Source: Escherichia phage HX01. Taken from it: DNA of 64,000 nucleotides. The stretch is from sequence record NC_018855.1. The stretch is one strand, 5' to 3'. The notes beneath the pieces are model-generated. The model worked only from the letters and a program-made list of their open reading frames with translations, ran no database searches and was not told where the DNA came from. The stretch's first letter is position 1. Each line of letters starts with the position of its first letter. This document shows positions 9,065 to 40,342 of this stretch, in pieces. The position numbers were made by a program, and so were the translations under genes.

Positions 9065-11776
9065 ATGAAAGAATTTTACTTAACGGTTGAACAGATTGGT
9101 GATTCAATTTTTGAACGTTACATCGATTCTAACGGCCGTGAACGTACTCGTGAAGTAGAATATAAACCATCACTGTTTGCTCATTGCCCGGAAAGTCAGG
9201 CTACGAAATATTTCGATATCTACGGTAAGCCGTGTACTCGTAAGTTGTTCGCCAATATGCGTGATGCCTCCCAATGGATTAAACGCATGGAAGATATCGG
9301 ACTTGAAGCACTTGGCATGGACGATTTCAAATTGGCGTATTTGTCTGACACTTATAACTATGAAATCAAATACGACCATACAAAAATTCGTGTGGCTAAC
9401 TTCGACATCGAAGTAACATCTCCAGACGGGTTCCCTGAGCCGTCACAAGCAAAACATCCGATTGATGCTATCACTCATTATGACTCAATTGACGACAGGT
9501 TCTACGTATTTGATCTATTGAATTCTCCATACGGTAATGTAGAAGAATGGTCTATTGAAATCGCTGCTAAGCTTCAAGAACAAGGCGGTGATGAAGTTCC
9601 ATCCGAAATTATCGATAAAATCATTTATATGCCGTTCGATAACGAAAAAGAATTGTTGATGGAATATCTCAACTTCTGGCAACAGAAAACTCCTGTCATT
9701 TTGACTGGATGGAACGTTGAGTCATTTGATATTCCGTATGTGTATAACCGAATCAAGAATATTTTTGGCGAATCCACAGCAAAACGGTTGTCACCACATC
9801 GTAAAACTCGTGTTAAAGTTATCGAAAACATGTATGGTTCTCGTGAAATCATTACATTGTTCGGTATCTCTGTTCTTGATTACATTGACCTTTACAAAAA
9901 ATTCTCTTTTACCAATCAACCGTCATATTCTCTGGATTACATTTCAGAATTTGAATTGAACGTTGGTAAACTGAAATATGACGGCCCTATTTCTAAGCTT
10001 CGTGAAAGCAATCACCAACGATATATTTCTTATAACATTATCGACGTGTATCGTGTATTGCAAATTGATGCTAAACGTCAGTTCATTAACTTGAGCTTGG
10101 ACATGGGTTATTATGCTAAGATACAGATTCAATCTGTGTTTAGCCCAATTAAAACATGGGATGCTATTATTTTTAATAGCCTTAAAGAGCAGAACAAGGT
10201 GATTCCACAAGGTCGTTCTCACCCGGTTCAACCTTATCCCGGCGCTTTTGTTAAGGAACCTATTCCAAATCGATACAAATATGTAATGAGTTTCGACCTT
10301 ACATCTCTGTATCCAAGTATTATTCGCCAAGTGAATATTAGCCCAGAAACAATAGCAGGAACGTTTAAAGTAGCTCCATTGCATGATTATATTAACGCTG
10401 TTGCTGAACGTCCTTCTGATGTGTACAGTTGTTCTCCTAACGGCATGATGTATTATAAAGATCGTGATGGTGTAGTTCCAACTGAAATCACTAAGGTCTT
10501 TAATCAACGTAAAGAACATAAAGGTTACATGCTTGCAGCTCAACGTAATGGTGAAATAATTAAAGAGGCATTGCATAATCCTAATCTTTCTGTTGACGAA
10601 CCATTAGATGTTGATTATCGTTTCGACTTCAGTGATGAGATTAAAGAAAAGATTAAAAAGTTGTCTGCTAAATCTCTTAATGAAATGTTGTTTAGAGCTC
10701 AACGTACTGAAGTTGCAGGTATGACTGCCCAAATTAACCGTAAATTGCTTATCAACTCACTTTATGGTGCACTTGGCAACGTTTGGTTCCGTTATTATGA
10801 TTTGCGTAATGCTACTGCAATCACAACATTCGGGCAAATGGCTTTACAGTGGATTGAACGTAAAGTTAATGAATATCTGAATGAAGTTTGTGGCACAGAA
10901 GGTGAAGCTTTCGTTCTTTATGGTGATACAGACTCTATTTACGTATCTGCTGATAAAATTATCGATAAGGTTGGTGAATCTAAATTCCGTGATACCAACC
11001 ATTGGGTAGACTTCTTAGATAAGTTTGCACGTGAACGTATGGAACCAGCTATTGATAGAGGTTTCCGTGAAATGTGTGAATACATGAACAATAAACAACA
11101 CTTAATGTTCATGGACCGAGAAGCTATCGCTGGGCCTCCACTCGGTTCTAAAGGTATTGGTGGATTCTGGACTGGTAAGAAACGTTATGCATTAAACGTG
11201 TGGGATATGGAAGGAACCAGATACGCCGAACCTAAGCTTAAAATCATGGGTCTAGAGACTCAGAAATCTTCGACTCCTAAAGCAGTACAGAAAGCTCTTA
11301 AAGAATGTATTCGTCGTATGCTTCAGGAAGGCGAAGAATCATTACAAGAATATTTTAAAGAGTTTGAAAAAGAATTCCGTCAATTGAATTATATTAGCAT
11401 CGCGTCGGTATCTTCTGCGAATAACATTGCTAAATATGATGTAGGTGGATTCCCTGGTCCTAAATGCCCGTTCCATATTCGTGGAATTCTGACGTATAAC
11501 CGGGCTATCAAAGGTAATATCGATGCACCGCAAGTTGTAGAAGGTGAAAAAGTATATGTTCTGCCTTTACGTGAAGGAAACCCATTCGGTGATAAATGTA
11601 TCGCATGGCCTTCTGGTACTGAAATCACAGATTTAATTAAAGACGACGTACTTCATTGGATGGACTACACTGTTCTCCTTGAGAAGACATTTATTAAACC
11701 ACTTGAAGGATTCACATCAGCAGCGAAACTCGATTACGAGAAGAAAGCATCTCTGTTCGATATGTTCGATTTTTGA
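9065..11776 (+). CDS. 43: gp43 family-B DNA polymerase
   Basis: 903 aa; exonuclease motifs (FDIEV, YNIIDV) and polymerase motifs (DLTSLYPSII, KLLINSLYGALG, YGDTDS); sequence matches what I recall of RB69 gp43. Confidence 0.95.
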   Translation: MKEFYLTVEQIGDSIFERYIDSNGRERTREVEYKPSLFAHCPESQATKYFDIYGKPCTRKLFANMRDASQWIKRMEDIGLEALGMDDFKLAYLSDTYNYEIKYDHTKIRVANFDIEVTSPDGFPEPSQAKHPIDAITHYDSIDDRFYVFDLLNSPYGNVEEWSIEIAAKLQEQGGDEVPSEIIDKIIYMPFDNEKELLMEYLNFWQQKTPVILTGWNVESFDIPYVYNRIKNIFGESTAKRLSPHRKTRVKVIENMYGSREIITLFGISVLDYIDLYKKFSFTNQPSYSLDYISEFELNVGKLKYDGPISKLRESNHQRYISYNIIDVYRVLQIDAKRQFINLSLDMGYYAKIQIQSVFSPIKTWDAIIFNSLKEQNKVIPQGRSHPVQPYPGAFVKEPIPNRYKYVMSFDLTSLYPSIIRQVNISPETIAGTFKVAPLHDYINAVAERPSDVYSCSPNGMMYYKDRDGVVPTEITKVFNQRKEHKGYMLAAQRNGEIIKEALHNPNLSVDEPLDVDYRFDFSDEIKEKIKKLSAKSLNEMLFRAQRTEVAGMTAQINRKLLINSLYGALGNVWFRYYDLRNATAITTFGQMALQWIERKVNEYLNEVCGTEGEAFVLYGDTDSIYVSADKIIDKVGESKFRDTNHWVDFLDKFARERMEPAIDRGFREMCEYMNNKQHLMFMDREAIAGPPLGSKGIGGFWTGKKRYALNVWDMEGTRYAEPKLKIMGLETQKSSTPKAVQKALKECIRRMLQEGEESLQEYFKEFEKEFRQLNYISIASVSSANNIAKYDVGGFPGPKCPFHIRGILTYNRAIKGNIDAPQVVEGEKVYVLPLREGNPFGDKCIAWPSGTEITDLIKDDVLHWMDYTVLLEKTFIKPLEGFTSAAKLDYEKKASLFDMFDF

Positions 11777-11816: not shown

Positions 11817-12452
11817 ATGAAAACTACTCCTATTACTATCGCTATTGACGCAATCATAAAACAAGCTTCTTCTTTGGTCGCTATGGCCAAAGTAATTAGT
11901 CAAAACCCTGCTCGTTATAATGCTATTCTAGAAACTCTTCGACGCCCAGGACTTAGTAATTATGAAAGCCGAGTAATTATTACAGGTGTTGGTAAGAATG
12001 CTAATATTGCAACTAAAGCTTCTGAGACATTTGCTTCACTCGGTATCCCGAGTATGTACTTGAACACTGGACATTATTCTCACGGTGATGCAGGATTCAT
12101 TGCGCCTAATGATGTGTTGATTCATATTAGTCGTTCTGGTAAAACTGAAGAAATGATAGGCGTGGCTAAGCATCTTAAAATGATTCGTCCGAACGTCAAA
12201 CAGATTCTGTTGCATTGTAACCCGGACATTCCACAAGAATACGAAGCTCTTTTTGATTATACGTTCTGTACAGGCATCGCAGTAGAGGTTGATGAGAATT
12301 CTCTGGCTCCGACCATGTCCACTACATTGTTGTTAGCGCTTATCGATACGTTTGCTATCAACCTTTCGTCTGAACGTGGATTTACCTCTAATGACTTCCT
12401 TAAGTTCCACCCTGGCGGTGCACTAGGTGCCATGTTACGAGGCGAACAATGA
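11817..12452 (+). CDS. SIS-domain sugar-phosphate isomerase, arabinose-5-phosphate isomerase-like (KdsD/GutQ type, no CBS domains)
   Basis: 211 aa with motifs matching the KdsD SIS domain by eye: GVGKNANIATKASETFASLG, HGDAGFI, SRSGKT, APTMSTTLLLAL, FHPGGALG. Confidence 0.7.
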   Translation: MKTTPITIAIDAIIKQASSLVAMAKVISQNPARYNAILETLRRPGLSNYESRVIITGVGKNANIATKASETFASLGIPSMYLNTGHYSHGDAGFIAPNDVLIHISRSGKTEEMIGVAKHLKMIRPNVKQILLHCNPDIPQEYEALFDYTFCTGIAVEVDENSLAPTMSTTLLLALIDTFAINLSSERGFTSNDFLKFHPGGALGAMLRGEQ

Positions 12453-12592
12453 AAGCAATAACAATAGGACTTTTACTATTGATGCTTGTCATGACTATCT
12501 ACTGGAGCTTAACGACTCCAGTAATGATTCCGACTCTTATAATCGGATGGATTATGATTGGACTACAAGCAAAGTATGAATGCTTTAACTAG
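12449..12592 (+). CDS. small hydrophobic membrane protein (47 aa)
   Basis: ATG overlapping the stop of the SIS gene; two hydrophobic segments; sits where T4 has imm, but homology not established. Confidence 0.3.
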   Translation: MKAITIGLLLLMLVMTIYWSLTTPVMIPTLIIGWIMIGLQAKYECFN

Positions 12593-12633
12593 AATAGTGT
12601 ACAATACTCCTACTTACCAATGAGGACCACAAC

Positions 12634-14319
12634 ATGAAAAAAGCTGTTATTCTTGGTGCTGGACTGGCAACTCGTTTGTATCCAATAACGCATCATATTC
12701 CTAAGGTGCTTGTTAACTATAAACAAGACACTATTCTGAGCAATTTGTATACAATTTATTCTGACCTTGGCGCAGATGAAATTATTGTAGTAGTTCATTC
12801 AAAATTTGCTGAAACTGTTCGAGCTTATTGTGAGCAAGAAGGGTTCAATGTGACTATTCGTACAGTTGATGAAGCGTATGGTTCTGCTTATGCTCTTGCT
12901 AAATTGCACAAAGATTTAGACGGCCATAATGTAATTGTTAACTGGTGTGATATTATTCCTGATTTTGGTTCATGGTCTTGGAATGTTAACGCAATCTATG
13001 TTAAAGGTGACGAATGTCGATATAATTTCGACGGTGAAAATATCACTAACGTAGGTTCAACAGGTGGTAATGTTGTAGGAATTTATCAGTTCAAAGACTG
13101 GGAATTCTATATGGGTTCTACCGATGAGGAAATTCATGAATACTGCAAAGGACGTGATTTCGTAGAATTCCTTTACGGCAGTGCATTCAATAAATCAGAG
13201 CTTATGAATCTAATTGATTTAGGTGATATGCCTAAACTTGAAAAGGCTCATGAAGTTCGTGAACTTAATCGTAGTTTTAATGCCGTTGAAATTGGTGAAG
13301 AAACTGTAACTAAATTCGCATTAACCGAACAAGGCCGAGCTCTTCAGAAAGATGAGATTTCATGGTATCTTAAAGTGAAATCAGATTCAGTTCCTCAGTT
13401 AGTTTCTGTTAATGAAAATAACTTTGAAATGGAACGCATTAAAGGTAAGCCGGCATTTGAATATATTAAATCCAAATCGAGTCTTGCTCGTCCACAAATT
13501 GTTGATGCAATTTTAGATGCACTGAAATTCAGCACAGACACTTATTTTGTAAGTCCTGAAACTGTTCGTCGTGATTTCACTAAAGAATTCTATACTAAAG
13601 TTATTGATCGTTGTGAAAGTATTCAACCATTGATTGATTCATTTGGTAAAATCACACATGTGAACTACACTAAGATTGGGCGTCTGAAGCCAATGTTGAA
13701 ACAAGCTTTAGAACACCTTATTCGTTATCATAACCGTTCTCAGGGACAGTACTCTGTTATTCATGGTGACCCGAACTTCAGTAATACTATGATTACTGAT
13801 AATGGTGAAGTCAAGTTTATCGACCCTCGTGGATATTTTGGTGAAACCAAGATTTATGGACCAAAATTGTACGACGAAGCTAAAGTGCTTTATGCTGTTT
13901 CAGGTTATGATGAATTCAACGCTAATCCGACCTGGGGACAGTTTACTATTGACGAAACAACTTGTAATGTGTCTATTAACATCAATCCATTAGTTTACAA
14001 ATATGGAAAGATGAGTTCGTTTAACGAGTATCATCATTTGGCAGTGGCAATTATCTGGATTGCATTAGGTGGTTATTTCAAGAATAATCCACTTAAAGCG
14101 GTAGCCGCATATTATAAAGGTATGGAACTTCTGACTAAGCAATTACGTAACATGGGCCGTGTACTTCAGGACGGCTCTATTAGTTATGACGTAGCAGAAC
14201 CTGTAACGGCTACTCTGATTACAAAAAATCCTGGTAAATGGGTACTAACTGATAAAGAAACTGGTGTTTCCTATCGTCCAATCGGTGGCGATATCACTCA
14301 TCAATGGGAACGAATCTAA
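12634..14319 (+). CDS. bifunctional sugar-1-phosphate nucleotidyltransferase / sugar kinase fusion (putative NDP-sugar salvage enzyme)
   Basis: 561 aa. N-terminus KKAVILGAGLATRL resembles the G-x-G-T-R-L loop of sugar nucleotidyltransferases; C-terminal HGDPNFSN...FIDPRG resembles the catalytic/Mg-binding motifs of APH/choline-kinase-like kinases. GAGGA ribosome-binding site. Confidence 0.6.
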   Translation: MKKAVILGAGLATRLYPITHHIPKVLVNYKQDTILSNLYTIYSDLGADEIIVVVHSKFAETVRAYCEQEGFNVTIRTVDEAYGSAYALAKLHKDLDGHNVIVNWCDIIPDFGSWSWNVNAIYVKGDECRYNFDGENITNVGSTGGNVVGIYQFKDWEFYMGSTDEEIHEYCKGRDFVEFLYGSAFNKSELMNLIDLGDMPKLEKAHEVRELNRSFNAVEIGEETVTKFALTEQGRALQKDEISWYLKVKSDSVPQLVSVNENNFEMERIKGKPAFEYIKSKSSLARPQIVDAILDALKFSTDTYFVSPETVRRDFTKEFYTKVIDRCESIQPLIDSFGKITHVNYTKIGRLKPMLKQALEHLIRYHNRSQGQYSVIHGDPNFSNTMITDNGEVKFIDPRGYFGETKIYGPKLYDEAKVLYAVSGYDEFNANPTWGQFTIDETTCNVSININPLVYKYGKMSSFNEYHHLAVAIIWIALGGYFKNNPLKAVAAYYKGMELLTKQLRNMGRVLQDGSISYDVAEPVTATLITKNPGKWVLTDKETGVSYRPIGGDITHQWERI

Positions 14320-14705
14320 TGCACCGTGTAGAAAACATGCTTAATCTTTGTTTTGATGTCGATGATTGTATAACAGAGTGGAATAACAACCGTGATTACG
14401 TGAACTTCAAACCAGACGTCGAAATGGTGACTGCCATTAATGCCCTGTACGATGCAGGGCATACCATAACGCTTTACACTGCTCGCGGTATGAAGTCAGT
14501 CGGTCCTGGTCGTATAGCAATTGACATTCTCCCAAGTCTGATTCAGAACTTGGCAAACATTGGATTGAAGTACCATAATTTGCTAACACATAAACCAGTA
14601 TATGATTGGATTATCGACGACAAAGCTATGCGTCCTGACGAATTCAAAGCTCTTATGAATAAAGGCGAATTCGAAACATTTAAATCATATAAACCGAATC
14701 TATAA
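14319..14705 (+). CDS. small HAD-like phosphatase (tentative)
   Basis: Track start 14304 trimmed to ATG 14319 (TAATG overlap with upstream stop). FDVDD near the N-terminus, TLYTARG, HKP and DWIIDD resemble HAD motifs I-IV, but motif I is non-canonical. Confidence 0.35.
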   Translation: MHRVENMLNLCFDVDDCITEWNNNRDYVNFKPDVEMVTAINALYDAGHTITLYTARGMKSVGPGRIAIDILPSLIQNLANIGLKYHNLLTHKPVYDWIIDDKAMRPDEFKALMNKGEFETFKSYKPNL

Positions 14706-14762
14706 TAATTTAAGTAAGACCTGCAAAAACCATCGCGTCAATTAACGTGAGATGCAAAAAAA

Positions 14763-15923
14763 ATGAATACTTTTAAAATCGGAACGAATTTTGATTTAGC
14801 TCTTCTTGATAAAATCGTAGAGCTCAATAAAACTTATCCTAATAGCTTGATAAACGAAGTATACGGCTCTACAAGAGAAATGGCTTTTGTAGCAGCCAGA
14901 CCTGATTTTAGGCTTCCTGACGTTGACAAAAAGATGTTAGAAGATTATGTTAAACGTTGTAACGAATTAGGTATTTGCTTTAACTATACACTCAACACGA
15001 TAAATCCTGGTTCAAAAAGAGAACTAGTTGAGTGGAAGAAGAAAGCTATTCAGGATTATGTTCAGTATCTTTGGTCAATAGGCGTATGGCGTATTACTAT
15101 CGCTAACCCTGTTGTTATGGAAATTGTTCGTGAAGTCAATAAAGACATTGAGATTGAAGTTTCAACAATTCTACATGTCGATGCTGTAACTCAAATCAAA
15201 TACTTGCATGACCAATATAATATCAAAAAGGTCTGCTGTGGAATTCATAAGAACCGTTCAGTTTCTTTCCTGAAACGTGCAGCAGAGTTTTGTAATAAGA
15301 ACAATATAATATTTGAAGTTCTTGTAAATGAGTTCTGTTCTAATGCTGGTAAAGGGTACACAACACATTGTAGCTATCGTGACTCTTGCTATATTTTCCA
15401 TAGCACCGATGTTACAGTAGATGATGCCAAATCCTTAAATGGATATCCAATGCAACACTGTATTAAAGCTCGTGATACAGATCCATTTAACTGGTTGAGA
15501 ACTCGTTTTGTTCGTCCTCAAGATTTGAAACTTTATAATGATATTGGTATCACTCAATTTAAAGTTTCGGGACGTACAGGTAGCACAGACTACATTTTGA
15601 AAGTTCTTGAAGCTTATGCTTCTGAAAAGTTTGAAGGCAATTTGTTGGAATTGTGGAAGCCTTTAGAGACCATTTTCACTCTTGAAAATGAGACCGAGTT
15701 TTCACATACAGTAAATATTGAAACCTCTTTGTTAGACGGCTTTTTAGAAAAAAGGTGGTTCAAACATCCAGATTTCGATTGTGCTAATGAAATCTGCGGG
15801 ACGACGTGTACATATTGTGAAAGATATTATAAACGTCAGTTATCTAAAAATGGGTTATCAGAAAACTCTATATCTATTATTGATATAACTAACTCTGATG
15901 ACGCTTTGAGGTACCCAGAATGA
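14763..15923 (+). CDS. uncharacterized enzyme-sized protein with C-terminal Cys cluster (C-x4-C-x3-C-x2-C)
   Basis: 386-aa ORF; C-terminal DFDCANEICGTTCTYCERYY; function not assignable by eye. Confidence 0.5.
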   Translation: MNTFKIGTNFDLALLDKIVELNKTYPNSLINEVYGSTREMAFVAARPDFRLPDVDKKMLEDYVKRCNELGICFNYTLNTINPGSKRELVEWKKKAIQDYVQYLWSIGVWRITIANPVVMEIVREVNKDIEIEVSTILHVDAVTQIKYLHDQYNIKKVCCGIHKNRSVSFLKRAAEFCNKNNIIFEVLVNEFCSNAGKGYTTHCSYRDSCYIFHSTDVTVDDAKSLNGYPMQHCIKARDTDPFNWLRTRFVRPQDLKLYNDIGITQFKVSGRTGSTDYILKVLEAYASEKFEGNLLELWKPLETIFTLENETEFSHTVNIETSLLDGFLEKRWFKHPDFDCANEICGTTCTYCERYYKRQLSKNGLSENSISIIDITNSDDALRYPE

Positions 15924-16005
15924 TTTCTAGAAAAACTTTTAACCACCAACTTAACGAAGAGATTTTGACTATTAAAATTAACAGCAACGAACAAATTCTT
16001 AAAAA

Positions 16006-16024
16006 GGCCCATAAGGGCCTTTTT
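16006..16024 (+). terminator. rho-independent terminator
   Basis: GGCCC-ataa-GGGCC hairpin followed by TTTTT, about 80 nt after the stop of the 386-aa ORF. Confidence 0.55.
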
Positions 16025-16117
16025 GAAACTAAAGCGGCTAAAGTGATTAAAGAACCTGTTCAACTAGAATACTAAGCCGAAGCTCTACGTTATATCAACA
16101 TCGCTAAGAAATTCAAA

Positions 16118-16143
16118 TAAGCTTTATGAATTGAGTATATAAT
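16118..16143 (+). promoter_or_regulatory. putative middle promoter upstream of the gene-42-like ORF
   Basis: TAAGCTTTA (MotA-box-like, one mismatch) with TATAAT 11 nt downstream. Confidence 0.25.
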
Positions 16144-16161
16144 AACTGTATTGAGGTAAAC

Positions 16162-16878
16162 ATGGGAAAACATAACACAATGAAATATATTAAAGCCGCA
16201 GATTTTCAATCCGCATTTAAAGCTGTCAATCGTGAAATTTTAGAAAATCCACAGTTCATTACTGATTCTCGTATTGGACGTTGTAATGAAATTGGGTCTA
16301 TGACAGTAGTTGTTGATACCCCTTCATCATTCAAAATGACCGACCCACGTATTAATCGCATCTCTTATGAATATGCTGAAGATTTCTGGAAATTTATGAT
16401 TTCTGGTGGTACTGATGCAAAAGAAGCATTTAAGGCATATCCTAACGTCGCTAAATTTATTTCTAAACCTAAATCAGACGCTTTGCCTGCAAACTTCAAC
16501 ACTTTCTATGGTCCACGAATTGCGGCCCAGTTACCAACTCTTCTAAAAGAACTTAAAGAAAAACCTAACTCTCGAAGAGTTGTGTTCCAAATTCTAGAAA
16601 GTTCTGATCAGGCTTTGCTTGATTCAGACGAAACACTTGAATATCCATGTACTGACTCAGTGACTTATTATATTCGTGATGGTAAGCTTTATACCCACTG
16701 TCATATGCGTTCTCAGAACTGTGCTGTTGTTATGCAGTTGGATTTTTATCTCCAAGGAAAATTACTTCATTATATCGCTAACGAATGTGGTGTAGAAGTT
16801 GGTGATTATACTCATACCATGGTAAGTGCCCATGTGTTTGAACGTGATTTTGATTATGTTAAAGGATTCCTTGACTAA
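16162..16878 (+). CDS. 42: thymidylate-synthase-fold pyrimidine hydroxymethylase, divergent dCMP hydroxymethylase (gp42-like)
   Basis: 238 aa at the syntenic gene 42 position; shares the NPNSRR, CTDSVTYYIRD and MRSQN blocks with T4 gp42 (NPDSRR, CTNTVQYLIRD, MRSND) but is otherwise quite divergent. Confidence 0.6.
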   Translation: MGKHNTMKYIKAADFQSAFKAVNREILENPQFITDSRIGRCNEIGSMTVVVDTPSSFKMTDPRINRISYEYAEDFWKFMISGGTDAKEAFKAYPNVAKFISKPKSDALPANFNTFYGPRIAAQLPTLLKELKEKPNSRRVVFQILESSDQALLDSDETLEYPCTDSVTYYIRDGKLYTHCHMRSQNCAVVMQLDFYLQGKLLHYIANECGVEVGDYTHTMVSAHVFERDFDYVKGFLD

Positions 16879-17777
16879 TGGCTATTTTCCGCGTACCTAT
16901 TTTGAGTATGCGGTCTTATGAAACTGGACAGTATGCTATCCTTAAGGATGGCAACTTCCAACTTCATTTGCACCGTGCTAATCCGGGTGATGTGATTACA
17001 TATCCACGTAATGCATCTGATATTAAAGAATGTGAACGTCTTTTCCCAGAATTTAAGTTTGTTCCATTATGGTATAAAGATAACGCATATAACACTCGTA
17101 AATATTTCTGGTCTGAAAATGAATTTGTGGTTGATTCATTAATTGATTATTATGATTGTGATTTTCTAATCACAGATATCACTGGATATGACGGCACTTT
17201 TGACGTAGAATTCAATTTCAATATCACTGCAGACCCTAATAAACCACGTTTTTATATTGACGAATTCTTAAAAACCGACATGTTGTCTGTTAATCGTTCA
17301 CTTCAAACTACTGTGTTGAATGAACGTCAAAAAGAAGTGCTGGTTAACGCAGGTGCAGATGGTAATAAGATTATCGTAACGCAGAAAGTTATACGTCCTT
17401 CCATCATGCAGCGTCTTGTAGGTGATTTGGCCCCTATTCATCTAGATGGTATTTTTCATCCATTTCGAATTAGTGACCCGTGTTATCGTTTTGAACAAGT
17501 GGTTGAATGCGCAATTCAATTAGGTCAACCGCTTTATATAACCGATCCAAATAATAGCTTCGACAGAAATAAGTATCCTGAAGAAGCACTGATTCGAATT
17601 TTTAAACCAACTAAAACTGAGTACTATCAAATTCTTAAAGGAAGACCGAAGATTCAATATTTCGAAAATCCTGAAGAAGTATTCCATCCAGGTCTTGGCG
17701 AGTTCATCTACTTTAACGCTTTAATTTCTTCACCGTATAATATACCTAAATATGAAGATGTCGTAATCGAGGAATAA
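16878..17777 (+). CDS. hypothetical protein (299 aa) occupying the beta-gt slot
   Basis: ATGG overlap with the gp42-like stop; no recognisable similarity to T4 beta-glucosyltransferase. Confidence 0.5.
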   Translation: MAIFRVPILSMRSYETGQYAILKDGNFQLHLHRANPGDVITYPRNASDIKECERLFPEFKFVPLWYKDNAYNTRKYFWSENEFVVDSLIDYYDCDFLITDITGYDGTFDVEFNFNITADPNKPRFYIDEFLKTDMLSVNRSLQTTVLNERQKEVLVNAGADGNKIIVTQKVIRPSIMQRLVGDLAPIHLDGIFHPFRISDPCYRFEQVVECAIQLGQPLYITDPNNSFDRNKYPEEALIRIFKPTKTEYYQILKGRPKIQYFENPEEVFHPGLGEFIYFNALISSPYNIPKYEDVVIEE

Positions 17778-17778
17778 A

Positions 17779-18327
17779 ATGGCTAAAATTATTTTAGTAG
17801 ATGGCCCAGATAATGCTGGTAAAACAACTTTCATTAATGACATAATGGAAATTAGTGAAAGATATGTAAAGATTGATTTCCCTAAACGAACAGTTGATGG
17901 ACGTTTCGATGTTAAGTCTCGAAATGAAGTTGGCTGTTTCGAAACGATGTTGAATTATTTAGACCCTACTAAGATTTATCTGTTAGACCGTGGATATATT
18001 AGTAACTGGGTTTATGGACGTATTCGACAAGATGCGGACTCGGTTCTTGACGTTTATGAACAGGATTATGTTCGTCTTTGCCAAAACCATGATGTGTTCA
18101 CAATTATTTTAACACGTAACGAAATGACTGAAAGTTTTGAAGACGACCTTATTACTTTGTCTTCATTCGGTTTTAATACAGTCATTTCATATTTTGAAGA
18201 GTTTGCAATTCATAACGAAATCCAAACGTATCAATTACTTAATCATGATGGTGCTAACAAAGTTATAGGATTTAATGCAAGCGAACGTAATGGTTTGATT
18301 ACAGAAATTATCAAATGGGCTCGTTAA
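17779..18327 (+). CDS. P-loop nucleotide/nucleoside kinase-like protein (thymidylate-kinase-like fold)
   Basis: 182 aa; Walker A ILVDGPDNAGKTT and a DRGY motif resembling the DR(Y/H) of TMK-type kinases. Confidence 0.5.
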   Translation: MAKIILVDGPDNAGKTTFINDIMEISERYVKIDFPKRTVDGRFDVKSRNEVGCFETMLNYLDPTKIYLLDRGYISNWVYGRIRQDADSVLDVYEQDYVRLCQNHDVFTIILTRNEMTESFEDDLITLSSFGFNTVISYFEEFAIHNEIQTYQLLNHDGANKVIGFNASERNGLITEIIKWAR

Positions 18328-18426: not shown

Positions 18427-19599
18427 ATGTCTGATTTAAAATCTCGTCTGATTAAAGCTTCTACTTCTAAAATGACTGCAGACTTGACTAAGTCTAAGCT
18501 GTTTAATAATCGTGATGAAGTCCCTACTCGTATTCCGATGTTGAATATTGCATTAGGTGGTGCACTGAATGCCGGGTTGCAATCAGGCTTAACTATTTTT
18601 GCTGCTCCTTCTAAACACTTTAAAACGTTGTTTGGACTGACCATGGTTGCAGCGTATATGAAGAAATATAAAGATGCAATCTGTTTGTTTTATGACTCAG
18701 AATTCGGTGCTTCGGAATCTTATTTTCGTTCAATGGGTGTTGATTTAGACCGTGTAGTTCATACACCAATTCAGTCAGTCGAACAACTTAAAGTTGATAT
18801 GACTAATCAGCTTGACGCGATTGAACGCGGTGATAAAGTTATTATCTTTATCGATTCAATCGGTAATACTGCATCTAAGAAAGAAACTGAAGATGCATTG
18901 AACGAGAAAGTTGTAGGTGATATGTCTCGTGCTAAGGCACTTAAATCTCTTTTCCGTATTGTGACCCCGTATCTGACTATTAAAGATATTCCGTGTGTTG
19001 CAATTAACCATACCGCAATGGAAATTGGCGGATTGTATCCTAAAGAGATTATGGGCGGTGGTACAGGTATTCTTTATTCTGCTAACACTGTATTCTTTAT
19101 CTCTAAACGTCAGGTTAAAGAAGGTACAGAATTGACCGGTTACGACTTCACGTTGAAAGCAGAAAAATCTCGTACAGTTAAAGAGAAATCTACTTTCCCG
19201 ATCACGGTTAATTTCGATGGTGGTATCGACCCATTCAGTGGCTTGCTAGAAATGGCAACTGAAATCGGTTTTGTGGTTAAGCCTAAAGCTGGTTGGTATG
19301 CTCGTGAATTCCTTGACGAAGAAACAGGTGAAATGATTCGTGAAGAAAAATCATGGCGTGCTAAAGCTACTGATTGTGTAGAATTCTGGGGACCTTTGTT
19401 TAAACACAAACCTTTCCGAGATGCAATTGAAACTAAATATAAACTAGGTGCTATCTCTTCTATTAAAGAAGTTGATGACGCTGTTAACGACCTTATTAAT
19501 TGCAAAGCAACAACTAAAGTTCCGGTTAAAACTTCTGATGCTCCGTCTGCAGCAGATATAGAAAACGACCTTGACGAAATGGAAGATTTCGATGAATAA
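18427..19599 (+). CDS. uvsX: UvsX recombinase (RecA/Rad51 family)
   Basis: 390 aa; N-terminus MSDLKSRLIKASTSK and most of the length near-identical to T4 UvsX as recalled. Confidence 0.95.
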   Translation: MSDLKSRLIKASTSKMTADLTKSKLFNNRDEVPTRIPMLNIALGGALNAGLQSGLTIFAAPSKHFKTLFGLTMVAAYMKKYKDAICLFYDSEFGASESYFRSMGVDLDRVVHTPIQSVEQLKVDMTNQLDAIERGDKVIIFIDSIGNTASKKETEDALNEKVVGDMSRAKALKSLFRIVTPYLTIKDIPCVAINHTAMEIGGLYPKEIMGGGTGILYSANTVFFISKRQVKEGTELTGYDFTLKAEKSRTVKEKSTFPITVNFDGGIDPFSGLLEMATEIGFVVKPKAGWYAREFLDEETGEMIREEKSWRAKATDCVEFWGPLFKHKPFRDAIETKYKLGAISSIKEVDDAVNDLINCKATTKVPVKTSDAPSAADIENDLDEMEDFDE

Positions 19600-26313: not shown

Positions 26314-26403
26314 AATATCTCCTTAGTTACCTTATTATTTATTACGCTTTATAAAATTAATGTTAGAATTAACTTCTCTTATACTGAATTGAAAGGAAAA
26401 ATA

Positions 26404-26925
26404 ATGGCACACTTTAACGAATGTTCACAACTTATTTCTGGTGTTGATAAAGCAGAAGAAGCTTATTTTAATGCTCTGATTCACGAAGATAAAGACCCAC
26501 TGCAGGTAATGCTTGATATGCAGAAATCTTTACAGGTTCGTCTGGCAAATGACAAGCCTGAACATAACAAACATCCTGATGAATTAGCCACTGCTGGCGA
26601 TGTTGTTGATTGGCTGCGTAATCAGAAAGATTATATTGATGATGAATTCCGTGAACTGCTGACTTCACTTGGTGGTATGAGCAATGGTGAAAAAGCCGCT
26701 AGCTCTGTATGGAAGCCGTGGAAGGCACAACATGCTGAATATCGAAATCGTCGTATCGATGAACTGTCTCCTGAAGACCAGCTTGAAATTAAATTCGAGA
26801 TGATTGATATCCTCCACTTTGTTCTGAATATGTTCCAAGGTCTGGGTCTTTCCGCTGAAGAAATCTTTAAACTGTATTACCTGAAAAACCAACACAACTT
26901 TGAACGCCAGGATAATGGTTACTGA
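26404..26925 (+). CDS. 56: gp56 dCTPase/dUTPase (dCTP pyrophosphatase)
   Basis: Track TTG start 26389 trimmed to ATG 26404; MAHFNECSQLI...PLQVMLDMQ...ETAGDVVDWLR...DDEFRELLTSLG...EDQLEIKFE closely matches T4 gp56. Confidence 0.9.
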   Translation: MAHFNECSQLISGVDKAEEAYFNALIHEDKDPLQVMLDMQKSLQVRLANDKPEHNKHPDELATAGDVVDWLRNQKDYIDDEFRELLTSLGGMSNGEKAASSVWKPWKAQHAEYRNRRIDELSPEDQLEIKFEMIDILHFVLNMFQGLGLSAEEIFKLYYLKNQHNFERQDNGY

Positions 26926-39241: not shown

Positions 39242-40342
39242 ATGAAAGTTATGTTTATCCCATCTCGTGCAGTCCCATTTAATCCTGACCGTGTACAAGG
39301 TGGTCTTGAAGCAGTACATTTAAATGTGTTGAAATATCTTGTGTCCATCGGTGCTGATATTGATTATATCGGCTTTGATAATGACACGTTTGGTGACTGG
39401 AAAGTTACACACCATCCTGTTGGTCATCTGACTAAATTTAGTCTAGGTATGAGTTATACTATGGCTCGTAAGATTGTTGAACTAGCCGGCATCCATGAAT
39501 ACGATTTTGTTGTTACTATGGAACCGACTAAACTAACCGTTCAGGCAATTAAAGACGCAGGTCTCTCTAAAGTTCATAAGAATTTTATGGCAACACCATT
39601 TGAACCGGTATCTCGTGGCATTGTTCAAATTTGGGACCAGACTATTCAAATTCATAAGAATGGTGGTAAGAGTTATGCTCCTACTAAAGCCTTCCGTGAA
39701 TTTGAACGCAAATATTGTTATATGACTTCAGGTCTGACTGACAAAATTGATTATGATTATTGGCGAGCAAATCCGTTGTTTGAAGCCGAAGATTATCCGG
39801 TTATTTGTTTGAATGAGAAACCTGAAGTTCTTCCGGCGACTGATCTGATTATTAGTGCACAACGTTATGACACTAAAATGCGTCGTACTGATGTTGCTCT
39901 TGAAGCGATTAAAGCACTAGGCGAAAATGGTGTAGGATACTGTCCAAGCAAATGGGCACCACCAGCTAAATATCCTGTTATTATTGATGCTCCACACAGT
40001 GAAATCATGGAACGTCTTAAAACAGCTAAAGCGCTTATTAATACGTGTCCTGACACAGGTACGGTAGAGAATAGTTCTATTGAAGCCATCTCTAAAGGTG
40101 TCCCTGTAATCCAGTTAGTTTTTAAGGATTATCCTCATGCGACATTCGAATACGACCCAGATACTGTGCGTGTAGAAATTGATTCCTCTACTCCTAAGAA
40201 AGAAGTAGTTGCGCTTTACACAAAAGCTGTATTAGAATTCACTGACACATACGAAGCTCGAGTTAAACGTGCTGAAGCAGTATGGAAGAAGTATAACCGA
40301 GATGCAGTTGTTGCGATGTGGGATAAAATCTTCACAGCGTAA
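39242..40342 (+). CDS. putative GT-B-fold glycosyltransferase, candidate DNA (hmC) glycosyltransferase
   Basis: 366 aa; C-terminal region GTVENSSIEAISKGVPVIQL resembles the E-x7-E donor-binding motif of GT4/GT-B enzymes. Inserted between gene 39 and rIIA.1/rIIA, where T4 has no glycosyltransferase. Confidence 0.5.
   Translation: MKVMFIPSRAVPFNPDRVQGGLEAVHLNVLKYLVSIGADIDYIGFDNDTFGDWKVTHHPVGHLTKFSLGMSYTMARKIVELAGIHEYDFVVTMEPTKLTVQAIKDAGLSKVHKNFMATPFEPVSRGIVQIWDQTIQIHKNGGKSYAPTKAFREFERKYCYMTSGLTDKIDYDYWRANPLFEAEDYPVICLNEKPEVLPATDLIISAQRYDTKMRRTDVALEAIKALGENGVGYCPSKWAPPAKYPVIIDAPHSEIMERLKTAKALINTCPDTGTVENSSIEAISKGVPVIQLVFKDYPHATFEYDPDTVRVEIDSSTPKKEVVALYTKAVLEFTDTYEARVKRAEAVWKKYNRDAVVAMWDKIFTA

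Follow-up and report, generated by a model that had tools for sequence, protein, structure and literature searches.

Arabinosyl-5-hydroxycytosine cassette of Escherichia phage HX01, with a possible oxygen-independent hydroxylase of the U32 family

Between the DNA polymerase gene 43 (9065-11776) and uvsX (18427-19599), Escherichia phage HX01 (NC_018855.1) carries a block of genes at 11817-18327, where all positions refer to the window, that is, the whole stretch of 64,000 nucleotides that was analysed. With a probability of about 0.9, judging from its sequence, this block would encode the Mosigvirus pathway that replaces cytosine in virion DNA by mono- and di-arabinofuranosyl-5-hydroxycytosine. 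The cassette itself is already known, and its value here is that of a correction, as annotators still write of a 5-hydroxymethylcytosine (hmC) system, of a 'dCMP hydroxymethylase' and of a 'peptidase'. A further proposal concerns a Cys-rich Fe-S protein of the U32 family within the block (14763-15923, + strand, 386 amino acids (aa); RB69 gp50 homolog). We consider the chances even that this protein is a prephenate-dependent, O2-independent hydroxylase, which would make a 5-hydroxy-pyrimidine deoxynucleotide or hydroxylate DNA directly.

The block is closely related to clusters whose products have been studied chemically. Escherichia phage F2 is 98.7% identical to it at the DNA level, RB69 97.2-97.3% along its whole length and HY126 about 97%. 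Matches that span at least 80% of the block come from 150 phage records. All 11 RB69 ORFs p045-p055 map onto the block with 78-100% protein identity and in the same order, and the HY126 proteins are 97-99% identical to those encoded here. By its sequence the window belongs to Mosigvirus. The RB69 gp45-gp55 genes plus gp3, and the Afh cluster of HY126, are the same genes in the same order, with 94-100% protein identity and differences at the strain level only: two genes that are split in RB69 are intact in HX01, and an ORF called ORF049 is shortened here by a 39-bp deletion. The RB69 pairs p052/p053 and p046/p047 each correspond to one intact ORF (12634-14319 and 16878-17777), which supports the published view that the splits of the bifunctional gene and of the first glycosyltransferase gene in the RB69 record are sequencing errors (PMC13326640). 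In RB69 and the Acinetobacter phage DLP3, the DNA contains mono- and poly-arabinosylated cytidines with the sugar ether-linked to C5 via the oxygen of 5-hydroxycytosine (5hoC) (Lee et al., NAR 2026, PMC13326640), and replacement of dC by arabinosyl-5-hydroxy-dC in virion DNA has been demonstrated for RB69, NP and DLP3 (PMC13326640, PMC13390438). HY126 DNA is likewise reported to carry arabinosylated 5hoC and not arabinosyl-hmC. A point that counts against the pathway assignment is that for HX01 it is drawn from the genes, the chemistry coming from orthologous phages.

A first, sequence-only reading of this DNA had recognised an RB69-type hypermodification cassette that makes activated arabinose from ribulose 5-phosphate. 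As to the kind of system this is correct, and the reading is borne out in part: the orthologous gene set is present in the same order from gene 43 to uvsX, with a predicted SIS isomerase, a bifunctional kinase/nucleotidyltransferase and an HAD phosphatase. All seven open reading frames (ORFs) that it listed are found on the + strand with the coordinates it gave. It also saw the cassette as standing in place of imm and beta-gt, and this is correct, since in T4 the interval is taken up by imm.1, imm, 42, beta-gt and segA. What it proposed as the product, arabinosyl-hmC, does not hold: in the orthologous phages the acceptor is 5hoC, and the sugar is ether-linked straight to C5 (PMC13326640). Three genes escaped it, namely an ORF at 15920-16075, the ORF054 homolog of 36 aa at 12482-12592, and a second, distal glycosyltransferase gene at 39242-40342.

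The sugar branch would start with the SIS-domain protein (11817-12452, + strand, 211 aa; RB69 gp55 homolog), a predicted arabinose-5-phosphate isomerase that would convert ribulose 5-phosphate to arabinose 5-phosphate (Ara5P). It is 98.6% identical to RB69p055 and matches Pfam SIS (1.7e-10) and the PDB entries 3etn, 5uqi and 2xhz (5e-25 to 7e-19). Its scores against NCBIfam KpsF/GutQ (2e-32) and KdsD (1.3e-30) are under the curated cut-offs, as it has no CBS domains; the cellular KdsD and GutQ have an SIS domain and tandem CBS domains, whereas the HX01 protein is SIS-only, like 3etn and 5uqi. No SIS isomerase is detectable in the clusters of Marfavirus (Klebsiella phage F48, locus L017) and Dhakavirus (JS98, locus L011), and presumably host KdsD/GutQ therefore supplies Ara5P there. 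The 561-aa protein (12634-14319, + strand; AfhE/RB69 gp52:53 homolog) is by its sequence an AfhE-type fusion of an N-terminal nucleotidyltransferase and a C-terminal kinase fold, that is, a putative bifunctional Ara5P 1-kinase and UDP-arabinose pyrophosphorylase. The N-terminus matches Pfam NTP_transferase (8.5e-10 at residues 3-99) and PDB 1jyk (2e-5), the C-terminus (residues 308-409) gives sub-threshold matches to APH, Fructosamin_kin and EcKL (E 0.002-0.03), and the whole protein is 97-99% identical to its HY126 and RB69 counterparts (97% to the characterised HY126 protein). A predicted HAD-type phosphatase (14304-14705, + strand, 133 aa; AfhF/RB69 gp51 homolog) has the N-terminal Asp nucleophile motif (FDVDDC at residues 17-22) and matches PDB 9iqw (2e-87) and 1xpj (7e-10) as well as, under its cut-off, the NCBIfam capsule-biosynthesis phosphatase TIGR01689 (4.6e-13); the RB69 annotation of this gene begins at the equivalent of 14319.

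The order of these steps had been drawn as dephosphorylation by the HAD protein followed by phosphorylation at C1, and it has to be reversed. In the published route of HY126 AfhE and AfhF, Ara5P is converted to Ara-1,5-P2 by the kinase domain, this to Ara-1-P by the HAD protein, and this to UDP-arabinofuranose (UDP-Araf) by the nucleotidyltransferase domain (PMC13326640). In HX01 the C-terminal kinase domain of the 561-aa protein would thus turn Ara5P into Ara-1,5-P2, the HAD phosphatase would then strip the 5-phosphate to give Ara-1-P, and the N-terminal domain would make UDP-Araf. The earlier fold calls (SIS, nucleotidyltransferase plus kinase, HAD-like, thymidylate synthase (TS) and P-loop) agree with the Pfam and NCBIfam profile searches that were run, with weak signals for the kinase and the P-loop protein.

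On the base side, the TS-fold enzyme (16162-16878, + strand, 238 aa; RB69 gp48 homolog) would hydroxylate dCMP at C5 with flavin and O2, an activity demonstrated with its orthologs from RB69 and HY126. Kinases would raise 5-hydroxy-dCMP to the triphosphate; this has been shown for a T4-type dNMP kinase, and the thymidylate-kinase (TMK)-like P-loop nucleotide kinase at 17779-18327 (+ strand, 182 aa; RB69 gp45 homolog) probably contributes. The latter is 98.9% identical to RB69p045, has weak dTMP-kinase and AAA matches in Pfam and NCBIfam, and is presumed to be the kinase for the modified dNMP. The polymerase would then build the modified nucleotide into DNA, where a predicted DNA arabinosyltransferase (16878-17777, + strand, 299 aa; RB69 gp46:47 homolog) would place the first arabinose on the 5-OH. 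This 299-aa protein had been left as unknown in the sequence-only reading; it is indeed present and without a Pfam match, but its two Rossmann-like domains form a GT-B fold, so that the transferase had gone unassigned. A second putative DNA arabinosyltransferase (39242-40342, + strand, 366 aa; RB69 gp3 homolog), located at a distance between gene 39 and rIIA, would attach the second arabinose. It is 99.2% identical to RB69p003 and matches PDB 9iqz/9ir0, 'phage HY126 glycosyltransferase', with an E of 5e-251. For both transferases the roles are suggested by the fold and by published work on the orthologs, where gp46:47 and gp3 are named as putative arabinosyltransferases (PMC13326640). Altogether, solved HY126 structures match three proteins of the window: 9iqc (TS homolog), 9iqw (HAD) and 9iqz (second glycosyltransferase). 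In one uncultured-phage contig (L061:5318-7003), homologs of the 299-aa glycosyltransferase and of the TMK-like kinase are fused in a single ORF, which ties the two functions together.

In the literature consulted, the U32 protein does not have a place in this scheme, being labelled a 'sugar or heterocycle reductase' for RB69 gp50 in Table 1 of PMC13326640. The sequence-only reading had termed it a 'Cys-cluster protein'. The richness in Cys stands, and the protein can now be placed in the U32 family of Fe-S proteins (Pfam Peptidase_U32 6.3e-11, above the gathering score). Its AlphaFold2 (AF2) model has a pLDDT of 92, and the best PDB match by Foldseek is the U32 protein 5d88; this entry was recovered only by the fold search, as sequence searches of the PDB with the protein and with its family profile gave nothing meaningful. 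The best E. coli match by hhalign profile comparison is RlhA (82%, E 1e-5). Formation of 5-hydroxycytidine at C2501 of 23S rRNA depends on RlhA, which needs Fe-S clusters and prephenate and has E161, C169, C176 and C611 as essential residues (PMC5727448). Two related systems are known: TrhP makes 5-hydroxyuridine in tRNA in a prephenate-dependent and O2-independent manner, with TrhO as the O2-dependent alternative (PMC6599085), and with UbiU/UbiV prephenate donates the oxygen for the anaerobic hydroxylation of ubiquinone precursors (PMC10990095).

In a MAFFT alignment, E185, C192, C203 and C209 of the phage protein fall on E161, C169, C176 and C192 of RlhA and on the equivalent residues of TrhP and UbiU. 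The three Cys residues correspond to C169, C176 and C193 of UbiU, which together with C232 are its Fe-S ligands (PMC6747719); like UbiU C232, phage C233 follows a GYP motif. At the C-terminus, C349 and C352 fall on the CxxC of RlhA (C611 and C614). The phage protein thus appears, from its sequence and model, to have the Peptidase_U32 domain and fold and the essential Glu and Cys residues of RlhA, TrhP and UbiU/UbiV, with the TIM-barrel fold in common. It differs from them in being only 16-20% identical, in being a single 386-aa chain, and in a second, fully conserved CX4CX3CX2C cluster (C340-X4-C345-X3-C349-X2-C352); nine Cys residues are invariant in 61 homologs, as is E185. Because the phage gene sits among genes for deoxynucleotides and DNA glycosylation, the substrate is presumed to be a deoxynucleotide or DNA, and not RNA or a quinone.

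Among cultured phages, the U32 gene is present in 220 records; the identity is 80% or more throughout, and the hosts are always Enterobacterales or Shewanella. Records with the TS-type hydroxylase number 376, and the 57 Acinetobacter and 22 Rhizobium phages among them have no U32 gene. In Enterobacter phage Entb_45, a 79-aa gene between the U32 gene and the TS homolog encodes an AroQ chorismate mutase (Pfam CM_2 2.4e-10). Homologs of it occur in 56 phage records, in most of them again between the U32 gene and the TS homolog. In these phage chorismate mutases the equivalents of the catalytic residues R11, R28, K39, E52, S84 and Q88 (EcCM numbering) are invariant. As a further example, Shewanella phage Thanatos-1 has the order TS, glycosyltransferase, kinase, U32, chorismate mutase; here the pair of U32 and chorismate mutase is kept despite the rearrangement.

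A larger set of U32 proteins comes from uncultured phages, as the protein database contains a large clade that is 44-58% identical to the HX01 protein. The gene contexts were collected by seven contig look-ups and a scan of IMG/VR, and about 10 kb around each U32 gene was surveyed with hidden Markov models built from this cassette, giving 15 Straboviridae-type and 26 divergent loci that are non-redundant at 90% identity. A TS-fold gene is near U32 in 15/15 of the Straboviridae-type loci and in 0/26 of the divergent ones. The homolog of the 299-aa glycosyltransferase (15/15 and 19/26, respectively) and the TMK-like kinase (15/15 and 20/26) are common in both; the bifunctional enzyme is present in 15/15 and 10/26, and the SIS isomerase in 11/15 and 8/26. 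Chorismate mutase and/or DAHP synthase is near U32 in 13 of the 15 and in 7 of the 26. Typical gene orders of the divergent loci are kinase-glycosyltransferase-U32, glycosyltransferase-SIS-bifunctional-U32, and U32-chorismate mutase-glycosyltransferase-bifunctional, and the start of the U32 gene is often overlapped by the stop of the glycosyltransferase gene. The loci of kinase, glycosyltransferase and U32 resemble a minimal form of the T4 logic, with a base modifier, a kinase and a glycosyltransferase. Pfam and NCBIfam confirm the stand-alone chorismate mutase, fusions of DAHP synthase and chorismate mutase, and DAHP synthases (for instance, 2.6e-70 in L005). A DAHP synthase adjoins U32 at L051:8399-9430, L053:7290-8354, L062:11076-12194, L041:9384-10127 and L005:11145-11891, in three cases with a fused chorismate mutase domain. 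In the literature searches made, no shikimate-pathway auxiliary genes within DNA-modification clusters came up.

Clusters thus come with the TS-type enzyme only, with U32 only, or with both, as one would expect if two non-homologous enzymes did the same job. The repeated capture of shikimate-pathway genes beside U32 suggests the use of prephenate, and an O2-independent route is proposed because the TS-type enzyme needs O2 and the phages infect facultative anaerobes. Under our proposal, the U32 protein would be a second means of making this hydroxylated base, one that needs no O2 because the oxygen comes from prephenate, and would allow DNA modification in anoxic hosts; the TS-type enzyme would serve in air and U32 in anoxia, so that these phages would carry two non-homologous hydroxylases. 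In many large uncultured phages U32 would be the only one of the two, and some of these would contribute their own chorismate mutase or DAHP synthase for the oxygen donor.

Two other roles for the U32 protein are both rather improbable. In the first, its Fe-S clusters would pass electrons to the flavin of the TS-type hydroxylase. Such a redox partner would fit the two conserved Cys clusters and the fact that the hydroxylase holds its flavin loosely and needs it reduced (PMC13326640), and U32 adjoins the TS-type gene in all 15 Straboviridae-type loci; however, there is no TS-fold gene nearby in any of the 26 divergent loci, TS-type hydroxylases work without U32 in Acinetobacter, Rhizobium and Dhaka phages and when expressed in E. 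coli, and the prephenate-pathway genes beside U32 would be left unexplained. The second role, for which the odds are similarly low, is in the sugar branch, as the 'sugar or heterocycle reductase' of the RB69 label or as an enzyme of UDP-arabinose biosynthesis. The Bas46 record is worded in this way ('putative enzyme involved in UDP-arabinose biosynthesis'), and the gene has the HAD gene on one side and the base-modifying genes on the other. However, the four-step route to UDP-Araf is complete without it, Acinetobacter phages and JS98 have the arabinose-activating genes and no U32, and at least eight TS-less loci consist of kinase, glycosyltransferase and U32 without SIS or nucleotidyltransferase (L020-22, L043, L047, L048, L054, L065). 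The linkage to chorismate mutase and DAHP synthase also has no place in a sugar route.

Several points weigh against U32 as a prephenate-dependent hydroxylase. In E. coli the TS-type enzyme suffices for 5-hydroxy-dC (PMC13326640), and E. coli Dhakaviruses such as JS98 are without U32. The absence of TS from the 26 divergent loci holds for the surveyed stretch of about 10 kb around U32. The one-to-one correspondence of the Cys residues depends on the method, as hhalign shifts their register by one relative to MAFFT. Up to 2024 (PMC10990095), no U32 protein had been reconstituted or proved to be a hydroxylase itself in vitro, and none is known to use a free nucleotide or DNA as substrate. In the part of the literature on phage arabinosylation that was covered, full-text searches gave nothing on U32, prephenate or chorismate; a role of gp50 may already be published. 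The window itself has no chorismate mutase, as tblastn with three phage chorismate mutases gave chance matches only, and host PheA and TyrA would therefore have to provide prephenate. The ORF in the chorismate mutase slot is also decaying here: ORF049 is 79 aa long in RB69 and Bas46, is frameshifted twice in HY126, and in HX01 is cut by the stop that the 39-bp deletion makes, leaving 51 aa (15920-16075, + strand). It was considered as a possible AroQ chorismate mutase and rejected, having no Pfam match and, in its intact 79-aa Bas46 form, an hhalign probability of 0.15%. As there is no profile similarity to phage chorismate mutases, ORF049 is termed a positional replacement and not a decayed chorismate mutase. 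The ORF049c homolog (15920-16161) also contains a conserved GC-rich hairpin, AAAAGGCCC-ATAA-GGGCCTTTT, at about 16003-16027.

If the proposed role is true, a U32 enzyme would for the first time be seen to act on a small-molecule nucleotide or on DNA, and a virus to draw on prephenate for oxygen. Since the TS-type enzyme depends on O2 while these phages infect gut bacteria and clear dCTP from the pool, U32 would then decide whether they can replicate in anoxia, and this would bear on gut phage therapy. A soluble phage enzyme acting on dCMP and prephenate would also make the U32 mechanism directly testable.

Some of the divergent loci have further neighbours of U32, including dCMP deaminase, dUTPase, NT5C, a deoxynucleoside kinase, a TAGT-like glycosyltransferase and UDP-galactopyranose mutase. 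In two large phage contigs that encode PolIII-alpha, one of them 466 kb long, a dCMP deaminase, U32 and a conserved 250-aa protein without a family match follow one another in this order (L002:7447-9939 and L006:8279-10601), with a thymidylate-kinase-like gene and uracil-DNA glycosylase (UDG) genes close by; these clusters may be for a modification of the 5-hydroxy-uracil type. An 86-kb contig (L003:8001-14360) has two U32 paralogs, NT5C, an NMN transporter, a deoxynucleoside kinase, a radical SAM/SPASM protein and a nucleoside deoxyribosyltransferase-like gene; to judge from a neighbouring glycoside hydrolase with a dockerin, the host may be of the Clostridia type. In L020:5777-14179, after kinase, glycosyltransferase and U32 come a TAGT-like (Tet-associated) glycosyltransferase, a dUTPase/DCD and a UDP-galactopyranose mutase, a layout reminiscent of the chemistry of galactofuranosyl-5hoC known from Rhizobium phage RL38J1. 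Taken together, the TS-less clusters point to uncharted glycosylated-base DNA modifications in uncultured large phages.

For the acceptor base, the alternative is the one drawn in the sequence-only reading, in which a T4-like dCMP hydroxymethylase makes hmC that is then arabinosylated, with NDP-arabinose formed by dephosphorylation of Ara5P, phosphorylation at C1 and activation. Arabosyl-hmC is what the original 2018 RB69 report (PMC6024577) proposed, the TS-fold protein is homologous to T4 gp42, and many GenBank records still read dCMP hydroxymethylase. We nevertheless regard this alternative as very unlikely, and for the orthologs it has already been refuted. Nuclear magnetic resonance and mass spectrometry show an ether link from the C5-OH (PMC13326640), and the earlier arabinosyl-hydroxymethyl assignment for RB69 has been termed erroneous (PMC13390438). 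Expression of the RB69 TS homolog gp48, which carries a flavin, gives the 5-hydroxylated product, 5-hydroxy-dCMP or 5-hydroxy-dC, with 18O from 18O2 (PMC13326640), and the same paper reports that He et al. obtained crystals of a HY126 homolog containing flavin and reconstituted the enzyme. The kinase-then-phosphatase order of the HY126 enzymes does not fit this alternative either. The HX01 protein has a Pfam Thymidylat_synt match of 2e-15 and is identical to PDB 9iqc/9ir2 at 236/238 residues (E 8e-163). Aligned with E. coli ThyA and T4 gp42, it shows the changes D169N, N177D and L143E (ThyA numbering), keeps the catalytic Cys146 (PC(T)) and has RSQN and LD motifs, but ends without the C-terminal extension that ThyA has. 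T4 gp42 retains Asp at ThyA position 169 (D179 in T4), where the HX01 protein has Asn and thus departs from the gp42 type. By its near-identity to 9iqc and the D169N change, the protein at 16162-16878 is a flavin/O2-dependent dCMP 5-hydroxylase (5-hydroxy-dCMP synthase), and its earlier assignment as a hydroxymethylase has to be dropped.

The T4 genes 42, alpha-gt and beta-gt remain a useful comparison. The logic is the same, with a TS-fold enzyme on dCMP, kinases and glycosyltransferases, and the same slot between gene 43 and uvsX is used. They differ in that HX01 would use flavin/O2-dependent hydroxylation (D169N) and a phage-made donor, UDP-Araf, whereas T4 uses folate-dependent hydroxymethylation and host UDP-glucose; the transferases also differ. 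Other related systems are those of DLP3/Lazarusvirus and Dhakavirus JS98, in which the TS-type hydroxylase, the first glycosyltransferase, the TMK-like kinase, the bifunctional enzyme and the HAD phosphatase are homologous (37-79% identity), whereas U32 and chorismate mutase are lacking. Lazarusviruses have two additional glycosyltransferases, with tri-arabinosylation in DLP3, and JS98 keeps imm beside gene 43, where the window has none. That the sugar genes serve cell-surface chemistry such as Kdo or capsule precursors, as their nearest cellular families (KpsF/GutQ isomerases and the EcbF/BcbF 'capsule biosynthesis phosphatase') might suggest, is scarcely credible given that they are embedded among replication genes beside a base hydroxylase and a DNA glycosyltransferase, and that arabinose is present in the virion DNA of orthologous phages (PMC13326640, PMC13390438).

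Some minor features complete the picture of the region. The small ORF of 36 aa (12482-12592, + strand) is a homolog of RB69 ORF054c, with 94% identity to RB69p054 by tblastn at 12482-12589; its homolog in phage LC53 is annotated as a transmembrane segment. The base composition of the block (GC 0.32-0.42) is the same as that of its flanks and gives no sign of recent import. Promoter-like sites in the block number 26 against 26.0 expected from shuffling, and terminator-like sites 5 against 3.8. A probable dCTPase of the gp56 type (26389-26925, + strand; Pfam dUTPase_2 1.2e-6) follows directly after a gp61-type primase, as in JS98, and we infer that it would exclude unmodified dCTP from the pool. 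It is also worth noting that a 219-aa ORF at 23712-24371 matches Pfam AdfA (Anti-DarT factor A; 5e-122) over its full length, AdfA being a factor with which phages counter the DarTG defence.

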